Source of the DNA: a virus
Taxonomy: Duplodnaviria > Heunggongvirae > Uroviricota > Caudoviricetes
Reading direction: 5' to 3' (one strand)
IMG/VR virus record: IMGVR_UViG_2531839178_000023
Length of the DNA: 15,696 nt
Shown here: piece by piece, positions 10,901 to 13,900 of the stretch
How positions within the stretch are numbered: position 1 is the stretch's first letter
Layout of the letters: every line of letters starts with the position of its first letter
Position numbers: made by a program

Positions 10901-13900
10901 TCAATTGGTCAACGCAACAGTTATGTGAAAACATGGGGTCGCGGAGGTTTTTTGAATGAGACGAACATTTACAGCAGAGGAAAAAGCCTCTGTTTTTGAA
11001 CTATGGAAGAACGGAACAGGCTTCAGTGAAATAGCGAATATCCTGGGTTCAAAACCCGGAACGATCTTCACTATGTTAAGGGATACTGGCGGCATAAAAC
11101 CCCATGAGCGTAAGCGGGCTGTAGCTCACCTGACACTGTCTGAGCGCGAGGAGATACGAGCTGGTTTGTCAGCCAAAATGAGCATTCGTGCGATAGCTAC
11201 TGCGCTGAATCGCAGTCCTTCGACGATCTCACGTGAAGTTCAGCGTAATCGGGGCAGACGCTATTACAAAGCTGTTGATGCTAATAACCGAGCCAACAGA
11301 ATGGCGAAAAGGCCGAAACCGTGCTTACTGGATCAAAATTTACCATTGCGAAAGCTTGTTCTGGAAAAGCTGGAGATGAAATGGTCTCCAGAGCAAATAT
11401 CAGGATGGTTAAGGCGAACAAAACCACGTCAAAAAACGCTGCGAATATCACCTGAGACAATTTATAAAACGCTGTACTTTCGTAGCCGTGAAGCGCTACA
11501 CCACCTGAATATACAGCATCTGCGACGGTCGCATAGCCTTCGCCATGGCAGGCGTCATACCCGCAAAGGCGAAAGAGGTACGATTAACATAGTGAACGGA
11601 ACACCAATTCACGAACGTTCCCGAAATATCGATAACAGACGCTCTCTGGGGCATTGGGAGGGCGATTTAGTCTCAGGTACAAAAAACTCTCATATAGCCA
11701 CACTTGTAGACCGAAAATCACGTTATACGATCATCCTTAGACTCAGGGGCAAAGATTCTGTCTCAGTAAATCAGGCTCTTACCGACAAATTCCTGAGTTT
11801 ACCGTCAGAACTCAGAAAATCACTGACATGGGACAGAGGAATGGAACTGGCCAGACATCTAGAATTTACTGTCAGCACCGGCGTTAAAGTTTACTTCTGC
11901 GATCCTCAGAGTCCTTGGCAGCGGGGAACAAATGAGAACACAAATGGGCTAATTCGGCAGTACTTTCCTAAAAAGACATGTCTTGCCCAATATACTCAAC
12001 ATGAACTAGATCTGGTTGCTGCTCAGCTAAACAACAGACCGAGAAAGACACTGAAGTTCAAAACACCGAAAGAGATAATTGAAAGGGGTGTTGCATTGAC
12101 AGATTGAATCTACAGTTGCTTTTTTTAATATATCTCGCTCAAGGCGAGCTTCATTTAACGCCTTACGCAGTTGCAGAATTTCAGATTCCAGTTCAGCCAC
12201 CGTGCGGGAACCAGGAGTACCGAGTCCTTTTCTGGCGGCGGTAACCCATTGTCCTAAAGTGCCTTCAGGAAGGGATAATCGGGAAGCGCCTTCACTGATC
12301 GAAAGTTGATTTTCAAGAACCGTTCTGACAGCTTCGGCTTTGAACTCTTTAGAGTAACGTTGGGTTTTTCTGCTCATTATTAGCTCCTTCTGATGCCATT
12401 CTATTTCAGGAAGGAGTGTCCGTTAAACTCAGGCTACCTCAAATTAATGGCTGGCAACGAGGAGGCGCAGGCTAAATGCGTTCAGGTAATGAACATAAGA
12501 GTTAACGAACTAAAACAGGCGGCATAAATGGCAAGCAGAGGCGTAAATAAGGTGATTATCCTTGGTCGGGTAGGACAAGACCCGGAAGTTCGATACTCAC
12601 CATCAGGAACAGCGTTCGCTAACCTGACAATAGCCACGTCAGAACAATGGCGAGATAAAAATACTGGCGAGCAAAAGGAATTGACTGAATGGCATCGTGT
12701 TGCTGTATCCGGGAAACTGGCTGAGGTCGTGGGGCAGTATGTAAAAAAAGGTGATCAGATTTATTTCGAGGGAATGCTGAGAACCAGAAAGTGGAAAGAC
12801 CAGTCAGGGCAAGACCGTTACACAACCGAGGTTCATGTCGGAATTAATGGCGTGATGCAAATGCTTGGCGGCATTGGCGACAGCAAACAACAAGCAGCCA
12901 GCAGGCAATCACAGAAGCCACAGCAGCAATCATCACCAGCACAACACAACGAACCTCCGATGGATTTTGACGACGATATACCCTTTGCACCAGTAACTCT
13001 CCCCTTCCCTCGTCACGCTATTCACGCAATTTAATCAGGAGAAAATCATGCCAGCGCCTCAGTATGGTGCGGATGACCCGCGCCGCTGTTCCGGCAATTC
13101 CGTATTGGAGGTGCTGGATAAATTCAGAAAAAACTACGACCGGATAATGTCGCTACCGCAGGAAACGAAAGAGGAAAAGGAATTTCGCCATTGCATATGG
13201 CTTGCAGAGAAAGAAGAACACGAGCGAATTTACCAGACATCAATCCGACCATTCCGCAAAGCCACATATACCCACTTCCCTGAAATTGACCCGCGCCTGC
13301 GTAATTACCGCTCACGCTATGGCGCTATCAGTAATGACTGAGGAATTAACCATGAGAGGACTTGCATACAATCCCGGCATTCTTCCGGCAGAAATGATTA
13401 TTCGCCAACGCGTAAAGCCAATGCCATCGAGAGAGGAATTGCTTAAGAGAAATTCTTTTCCATCAGTGAATCAAAACAAATATCTGAATGCGATGTGGCG
13501 GAGTGGGAAAAAATGAAACAAATGTCACTAATTGAGATGGATGGTTTTCTGAAAGGTAATAGATTTGCCCCTATATTTCCAGACATCTGTTATCACTTAA
13601 CCCATTACAAGCCCGCTGCCACAGATATTCCCGTGGCGAGCGATAACCCAGCGCACTATGCGGATGCCATTCGTTATAATGCTCGAACGCCTCTGCAAGG
13701 TTCTTTGCTGCCGTTAACCCGTCTGGTTTGGGCATGATACTGATGTAGTCACGCTTTATCGTTTTCACGAAGCTCTCTGCTATTCCGTTACTCTCCGGAC
13801 TCCGCACCGCCGTGTTCTTCGGTTCAAGTCCCAACATCCGGGCGAACTGGCGTGTTTCATTAGCCCGGTAGCATGAACCATTATCCGTCAGCCACTCCAC

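Follow-up and report, generated by a model that had tools for sequence, protein, structure and literature searches.

A conserved 15-residue extension follows the internal acidic tip of the ssDNA-binding protein encoded in IMG/VR record IMGVR_UViG_2531839178_000023

The ssb gene and the parts of its product

The window analyzed here, i.e. the whole stretch of 15,696 nucleotides of the Caudoviricetes record IMGVR_UViG_2531839178_000023, contains an intact open reading frame (ORF) at 12528-13034 on the plus strand, which starts with ATG and encodes an SSB (a protein that binds single-stranded DNA) of 168 amino acids. The Pfam SSB profile PF00436 matched residues 6-104 well above its cut-off (E=1.6e-36; 125 bits versus 26), which places the protein in the OB-fold SSB family, and the PHROG profile phrog_44 covered residues 1-167 (E=1.6e-66). 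The following parts of the gene were distinguished:

12528-12869, plus strand: OB-fold ssDNA-binding domain, approximately residues 1-114 (Pfam PF00436; AlphaFold2 (AF2) model)
12870-12950, plus strand: Gln/Ser/Pro-rich disordered linker, residues 115-141 (no consensus in the alignment; predicted local distance difference test (pLDDT) below 50)
12951-12986, plus strand: host-like acidic SSB tip, residues 142-153, internal (translation)
12987-13031, plus strand: 15-residue extension, residues 154-168, a conserved optional C-terminal module (homologues, selection)
13032-13034, plus strand: stop codon of ssb (translation)

The protein shares with the homotetrameric SSB of the E. coli type (PF00436) the OB domain, the disordered Gln/Pro-rich linker, and a 12-residue acidic tip that ends in [IVL]PF and that we take to be identical to the tip of E. 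coli SSB. In contrast to that type, the tip is internal, 15 conserved residues follow F153, and a free carboxylate is not present at this Phe. A terminal Phe is a trait of canonical SSB C-terminal tip (SSB-Ct) function and not of Pfam membership. The translation confirmed the internal DDDIPF and the 15-residue extension that had been noticed in an earlier sequence-only reading; however, the TTT codon of the tip Phe is located at 12984-12986 and not, as had been given there, at 12988-12990.

A run of 15 codons without a stop has a chance of about (61/64)^15 = 0.49 and would be unremarkable alone, but the extension stands above chance because it is conserved in hundreds of diverged sequences. 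The AF2 model of the full protein contained confident beta-strands over residues 8-112, which form a beta-barrel, and in this monomer model the extension was not confidently docked onto the OB domain. Sequence searches of the PDB with 21-residue tail peptides yielded no matches, and inspection by eye revealed no zero-frame X XXY YYZ slippery heptamer at CCC TTT G.

Conservation of the extension among SSB homologues

Comparison with phage genomes (tblastn) revealed that the SSB of the window is 100% identical to the SSBs of the isolated phages HK75, mEp235, and mEpX2. The same tail was present in the SSBs of the Salmonella phages epsilon34, g341c, and NM-3 (92% identical) and in those of ECP1, CP-1639, and HZ41 (about 70% identical). 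Also in an E. coli O111 prophage, the SSB of which is about 70% identical, with a diverged body and a diverged linker, the extension was identical.

Whether the extension is conserved in a clade or private was a question raised in the sequence-only reading, and the alignments answered it in favor of conservation. About 105 of the 120 best homologues (66-93% identity) in a collection of 5.8 billion proteins, which were from Klebsiella, Citrobacter, Enterobacter, Salmonella, and E. coli, contained the tip and, directly after it, the motif [AS]P[VIA][TGS]L[PQT][FY][PSG][RKS]Hx[IVM][HY]x[IL]. Beyond this set, the module can be described more generally as [AS]-P-[VI]-[GT]-L-[PQM]-[FY]-x-x-x-x-hydrophobic-x-x-[ILM], with a length of 14-16 residues. 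In an alignment of 59 SSB sequences, F147, P152, and F153 of the tip as well as P155 and L158 of the extension were invariant, and P159, F160, P161, R162, H163, and I168 were at least 90% conserved, whereas the linker had no consensus. Among 777 phage records with a host-like tip, approximately 169 carried the extension. A phmmer search with the 30-residue tail against 1.84 billion cluster representatives retrieved only 13 short fragments, probably owing to the short query and to the rarity of the tail among cluster representatives.

These results bear on the possibility that the extension results from a lesion, i.e. the private loss of a stop codon in a prophage gene under decay, an explanation that is suggested by the heavy degradation of the surrounding prophage by insertion sequence (IS) elements. 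However, isolated phages encode the identical protein, and hundreds of diverged homologues carry the extension. In addition, the codon after TTT is GCA, from which a stop codon (TAA or TGA) can be generated only by two substitutions; therefore, the extension did not arise from a one-base lost stop. The extension is neither private nor separated by a point difference from tip-only relatives, and a pattern in which all close homologues end at DDDIPF and this copy differs by a simple stop mutation is clearly not what was found. We regard the probability of a lesion as virtually negligible and the extension as almost certainly a conserved functional module. From the earlier alternative of a decayed gene or a designed variant, only the latter is retained, in the form of a variant that is kept across a large clade and beyond.

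Occurrence of the tail on other protein families, on plasmids, and in different hosts

A degenerate DNA pattern (DDIPF-AP..L.[FY]) was used to scan IMG/VR, and at least 120 loci were found. Among the matches listed, the tail was attached to at least four N-terminal families without BLAST similarity to one another, namely classic OB SSBs (102 loci), a 243-residue phrog_743 'SSB' without a Pfam match (9 loci), a 155-residue protein (L055), and the 406-residue KB57_040 family (phrog_4477) of large lytic Vequintavirinae phages. KB57_040 (L005, 364-1584) and its homologues are 'hypothetical proteins' of 300-430 residues encoded by lytic phages of about 140-150 kb. The AF2 model of KB57_040 consisted of two beta-rich domains and a helical domain. 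A Foldseek search with this model gave no match at E <= 0.001; the weak top matches were the OB-fold nucleic-acid binders Teb1, TEBP-alpha, LEF-3, RPA, and Thermus SSB, which is no more than a hint of tandem OB-like barrels. The family probably represents the ssDNA-binding protein of these phages, with every member ending in a host SSB tip.

The tail is not confined to phages. SSBs of IncN conjugative plasmids, e.g. pNDM-ECS01, have the extended tail, and the full tail was detected in 133 plasmid records. On pNDM-ECS01 (L135), the extended SSB gene and a convergent SprT-family metalloprotease gene are adjacent (2006-2539 and 2569-3354), and ssb is located upstream of ArdR and other anti-restriction genes, in a region with the appearance of a leading region.

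In bacterial contigs representing one genome per species, the pattern occurred at 37 loci, essentially all in Gammaproteobacteria, and the variants of the extension tracked the host group:

Enterobacteriaceae: 15-residue variant ending in ...PRHAIHAI
Morganellaceae: APIGLPYPRHAIYVI or APIGLMYPRHLINVI (...PRHAIYVI or ...PRHLINVI)
Vibrio, Alteromonadales, Aeromonadales: 14-residue form APIGLQYPALLxxM

The genes upstream of extended ssb genes encoded Rad52-like, Sak4-like, and RecT proteins, YqaJ-type exonucleases, and HD-domain proteins. Because many kinds of recombinases adjoin extended ssb genes and the variants track the host, the binding partner of the extension is probably encoded by the host.

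Selection on the tip and the extension

The ratio of non-synonymous to synonymous differences (pN/pS) was calculated from 71 distinct tail DNAs for ten codons of the tip and the fifteen codons of the extension. The values were 0.09 for the tip and 0.36 for the extension, and both are overestimates because pS was saturated (0.65-0.95). The conserved positions of the extension were encoded by a variety of codons, i.e. six at L5 and 7-10 at P8, R9, and H10. P8, R9, H10, I12, and I/L15, none of which was fixed by the scan pattern, were conserved with many codons in use. The use of many codons for conserved residues shows that the conservation of the extension is at the protein level. Relaxed selection on read-through codons is at odds with the pN/pS of 0.36 in the presence of saturated pS and with the many synonymous codons. 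The extension is thus under purifying selection, and the internal tip is as constrained as a canonical tip.

A homing endonuclease gene at the junction of tip and extension

In two phages, the tip and the extension were found on different ORFs. The ssb gene of phage Huey (L003), the product of which is 98.7% identical to the SSB of the window, ends with ...NFDDEIPF and a stop codon, and that of phage Sf6 (L004) ends with ...NFDDSDIPF and a stop codon. In both phages, an ORF for an HNH endonuclease of 155 or 159 residues starts 10-16 nt after ssb and ends in the residues of the extension. The same arrangement was seen in two Salmonella prophage contigs, in which the HNH ORF fills an apparent gap of 500 nt after ssb and again ends with the extension residues. 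The ORFs are located as follows:

1555-2022 in Huey (L003): HNH endonuclease ORF
1552-2031 in Sf6 (L004): HNH endonuclease ORF
about 2968-3450 in the Salmonella prophage contigs L129 and L130: HNH ORF, absent from the annotation

Comparison of Huey with the window showed that the right junction is exact from ACCAGTAACTC onward. On the left flank, about 450 nt of near identity are followed by approximately nine recoded codons at the end of ssb (7 differences in 27 nt). The insertion lies after TTT, and a new stop codon and a ribosome-binding site follow the recoded codons. As at a homing target, a near-identical allele therefore carries an HNH gene at a defined point with recoded flanks, and the window contains the uninterrupted, endonuclease-free allele, in which the tip and the extension form one ORF.

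The HNH proteins of Huey and Sf6 belong to phrog_2340, and the family profile ends at residue 139 of 155. Alignments with relatives, among them I-KsaII, which is intron-encoded in Staphylococcus phage K, reach only as far as about residue 130-139, and these relatives lack the tail. Because the family profile and the relatives lack it, the tail was captured from ssb rather than being an original part of the nuclease. In the GenBank entry of Sf6, gene 26 carries the note '14 contiguous amino acids identical to E. coli SSB', which evidently refers to the extension tail. Like other free-standing phage HNH homing endonucleases (phrog_2340 and I-KsaII relatives), the gene shows a presence/absence polymorphism and recoded flanking codons; the difference is that the window holds the allele without the endonuclease. 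We infer that the HNH gene encodes a homing endonuclease that would toggle the state of tip and extension, and cleavage of the uninterrupted sequence is predicted. Its insertion at the boundary is one route by which the extension is lost from the SSB.

In Vibrio phage D70 (L008; 1202-1345 and 1339-1776), a 9-nt insertion with a stop codon lies inside the tip, such that ssb reads ...DFDDDRS, stop, DIPF, stop. A related HNH endonuclease gene is situated about 80 nt downstream, again at the 3'-end of ssb.

The extension as an exchangeable cassette

In three independent lineages, tip-only alleles and alleles with tip and extension part exactly after the Phe codon. A host-like tip was present in 105 out of 105 homologues of the KB57_040 family; in 73 of them the protein ends with the Phe, and the other 32 have 15-16 more residues that show the extension motif. 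Proteins of this family that are 91% identical can differ in the presence of the extension. On the DNA level, the extended alleles of KB57 and BIS47 are identical to a tip-only Ro1-like allele up to TTT; then, about 58 nt (extension plus stop codon) correspond to about 39 unrelated nt starting with TGA in the Ro1-like allele, and the sequences are the same again beginning at the terminator. These alleles contain no endonuclease gene at the tip-extension boundary. A second tail-bearing gene in Klebsiella phage BIS47 was considered and rejected, as a scan of the whole genome found one only. In a Sak4-type prophage (L132) with an SSB that is 91% identical to that of the window, divergence starts right after CCC TTC.

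The boundary was also visible in a comparison of the window with the O111 prophage (L002), which comprised 12442-13476 of the window. The body of ssb was only 56-82% identical, whereas identity was 93-100% upstream of the start codon and 96-100% from 12982 onward for the extension and abc2; with the DUF2737 gene included, the flanks were 93-100% identical. These jumps in identity show that the ssb body was exchanged between conserved flanks, one of which starts at the junction of tip and extension. In P22, which has abc1 in place of ssb, homology to the window begins only at 13038, and the extension sequence is absent; therefore, the extension belongs to ssb and not to abc2 or abc1. A derivation of the extension from P22 abc1 or from a part of the abc2 module was rejected on the same grounds. 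What separates tip-only relatives from extended ones is cassette replacement or HNH insertion rather than a point mutation. The extension behaves as an optional, discrete cassette, the 5'-boundary of which is always the codon after the tip Phe.

The mosaic boundary and the HNH genes raise the possibility that the extension is a scar or a hitch-hiker, either the leftover 3'-end of an excised HNH gene or boundary DNA of recombination that is young or useful for module exchange. In accordance with this, the HNH ORFs of Sf6 and Huey terminate with the same 14-15 residues, and the extension DNA is 100% identical between prophages with ssb bodies that are only 56-82% identical. However, the HNH family profile and relatives do not contain the tail, P22 with abc1 instead of ssb lacks the extension sequence, and the motif is found, at saturated synonymous divergence, with many codons per conserved residue, and far from any HNH gene, in large lytic phages as well as on SSBs of Vibrio, Proteus, and marine bacteria. 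An origin as a scar is therefore considered very improbable.

Possible functions of the two-part tail

The ssb gene of the window is an intact member of a widely distributed group of SSBs from mobile elements with a two-part C-terminal tail, in which an acidic tip that mimics the host SSB is directly followed by a hydrophobic/aromatic module of 14-16 residues. We propose that this module may serve as a short linear docking peptide and thereby alter the set of host genome-maintenance proteins that are recruited to the ssDNA of phages or plasmids. The module removes the free Phe carboxylate that is used by canonical partners of the tip and would most likely add a second binding site. A bare cap is not sufficient as an explanation because tip and extension are both conserved. 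That the extension is a docking peptide re-specifying the partners of the SSB tail has, in our view, about an even chance of being correct.

The most specific candidate for the partner is the beta sliding clamp, based on a resemblance of motifs. Clamp-binding hexapeptides have the consensus QLxLx[LF], e.g. QLSLPL in Hda, QLVLGL in Pol IV, and QLGLF in Pol II. The P-[VI]-[TG]-L-[PQ]-[FY] of the extension has the spacing of this hexapeptide; the hydrophobic residue at position 2, the Leu at position 4, and a Leu/Phe-type residue at position 6 are present in all variants ([VI]3, L5, and [FY]7 of the extension), but an invariant Pro takes the place of Gln at position 1. Known clamp motifs (QL[SD]LF or QLxLxL, and QHDLF of MuC in 10.1101/2025.01.04.631326) are likewise short hydrophobic peptides in which position 4 is an invariant Leu and position 5 or 6 is aromatic or Leu, their spacing is fitted by P-V-T-L-P-F and P-I-G-L-Q-Y, and phage proteins are known to use them; they differ from the extension by the Gln and by the lack of the approximately eight further conserved residues that follow in it. 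In MuC of phage Mu, the first Q of the clamp motif could be mutated without significant effect, but the Leu was essential (10.1101/2025.01.04.631326). By analogy, the clamp may be the partner, but this identification is rather unlikely to be right.

Several observations weigh against the proposal of a docking peptide and its partner. The resemblance to clamp motifs lacks the consensus Gln and concerns a short pattern of low information content. In the IMG/VR and GTDB sets, the scan pattern itself required A1, P2, L5, and F/Y7; these residues are, however, independently conserved in the homology-based sets, i.e. the 120 best homologues and the KB57_040 family. In the AF2 model, the pLDDT of the tail was between below 50 and about 51, with a weak beta-hairpin (156-159/164-167). 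The module was seen only in mobile elements of Gammaproteobacteria, although clamps are universal. Phages with alleles split by the endonuclease (Sf6, IME10, N7, and Huey) and tip-only phages are viable, and the module is therefore dispensable for basic growth.

Alternatively, the extension might act solely by masking. Burial of the Phe carboxylate would allow the SSB to coat ssDNA without recruiting exonuclease I, RecQ, RecJ, or RecO, and without alerting sensors of the SSB tail. Canonical partners are known from structural work to make contact with the carboxylate at the end of the tip, and this favors masking, as do the location of ssb within an anti-nuclease/recombination module, adjoining abc2, and the presence/absence polymorphism among near-identical phages, which is expected of an arms-race trait. 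However, any sequence would do for a cap, whereas that of the extension is conserved across four families and several host orders; moreover, a disabled tip should decay or be deleted, yet it is as conserved as a canonical tip (pN/pS of 0.09). Masking alone is thus unlikely, and the ideas of a masked tip and of sensor evasion, which stem from the sequence-only reading, are probably incomplete as stated.

The dispensability of the module in Sf6-type alleles would also be compatible with a turnover or regulatory tag, e.g. a hydrophobic end that serves as a degron of the Lon or ClpXP type or that mediates autoinhibition or self-association. Such a tag would limit the level or activity of a foreign SSB that could otherwise poison host replication. 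The end is indeed always hydrophobic or aromatic (...IHAI, ...IYVI, ...LLMCM), and the tail was disordered in the model apart from the weak hairpin. On the other hand, it is the N-terminal half, AP[VI][GT]L[PQ][FY], that is most conserved, whereas the extreme C-terminus varies by host group, and folding back onto a specific DNA-binding domain is improbable because the module is present on unrelated domains. We judge a tag to be no more probable than masking.

With regard to the docking peptide, a functional contact of an SSB tail is known from phage HK620, in which the C-terminal tip of the SSB recruits the cognate annealase Sak4 (PMC5928155). As in HK620, ssb is positioned between the annealase gene and abc2 in a lambdoid early-left operon; however, the HK620 SSB is of a distant type with a free tip, NDYPPF, and the extension instead adjoins many families of annealases. 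In a broader and distinctly speculative version of the proposal, ssDNA-binding proteins of gammaproteobacterial mobile elements could be two-site adaptors that tether the clamp or another host hub to phage or plasmid ssDNA and deny the free tip to carboxylate-dependent partners such as exonuclease I, or they could form a switch of defence and counter-defence. If true, the presence/absence polymorphism among near-identical phages and the toggling endonuclease would reflect selection on this switch.

The tail architecture is real, widespread, and apparently undescribed. A search of the accessible literature for peptide strings of the tail found no paper, the protein is simply called a bacterial-type SSB in the genome paper of epsilon34, and genome papers and annotations label the extended proteins as plain SSBs. 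The tail is invisible under the label 'single-stranded DNA-binding protein', and the splitting HNH ORF is sometimes uncalled, which constitutes an annotation gap. The free C-terminal Phe of SSB has been treated as a universal handle for more than 12 bacterial genome-maintenance proteins, whereas phage and plasmid SSBs of a large, conserved class cover this handle with a defined peptide while keeping its sequence. Either the handle works internally, or mobile elements re-route host factors. HK75 versus Huey and Sf6 represent natural near-isogenic pairs. The tail is of relevance to recombination in phages, to recombineering, to the way in which plasmids become established after conjugation (the leading-region SSBs of IncN plasmids), and to phage-host conflict.

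Genomic context of the window

The window is an IS-riddled remnant of a serotype-converting, P22-like prophage. In addition to ssb, the following features were assigned:

1-1158: integrase
1292-1654: gtrA
2150-2899, minus strand: IS630-like element interrupting gtrB
3740-4228 and 4390-5355: serotype-specific DUF6056 glucosyltransferase, split into two ORFs
5449-6522: acyltransferase, intact
6820-8841, minus strand: tailspike
9006-9992, minus strand: ORF of 328 amino acids between the tailspike and IS3 orfB, no Pfam match
9986-10825, minus strand: IS3-family orfB
10956-12107: IS30 transposase
12027-12441, minus strand: IS3-family fragment (orfA-like ORF 12027-12377) that truncates the annealase gene (translation)
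12442-12527, plus strand: remnant 3'-end (last 86 nt) of a Rad52/Erf-type annealase gene (homology)
13048-13341, plus strand: abc2, P22-type anti-RecBCD protein, intact (PF11043, E=2.8e-61; phrog_656)
13352-13516, plus strand: small DUF2737-family gene, the last prophage gene before IS2 (assigned by correspondence to 3911-4075 of L001; the ORF ends at 13516)
13571-14844, minus strand: IS2-type element (orfB 13571-14476, orfA 14434-14844) that truncates the early-left operon downstream (translation; matches to 'IS3-like element IS2 family transposase')

As in the P22-type recombination module, abc2 is directly downstream of ssb; directly upstream, however, IS sequence has taken the place of an Erf/Rad52-type annealase gene. 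The intact arrangement of annealase gene, ssb, and abc2 was seen in a related prophage (L001). Homology to intact prophages starts at 12442, and thousands of E. coli genomes contain IS ends that match bases 12400-12441; therefore, the annealase gene and the operon promoter are gone. Within this decayed prophage, ssb has survived intact, and expression of this copy is uncertain. Complete E. coli genomes covered at most 32% of the window, and the IS load fits a genome of the Shigella type.

At 1292-5355, the gtr cluster for O-antigen glucosylation is degraded. IS elements are nested or adjacent at 9986-12441, where the IS30 element was apparently inserted within an IS3-family element, the orfA-like fragment of which overlaps 12027-12377; IS2 is located downstream. 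The features matching the 9006-9992 region included phage DNA-ejection proteins, and the minus-strand ORF in this region may be a truncated ejection-protein gene.

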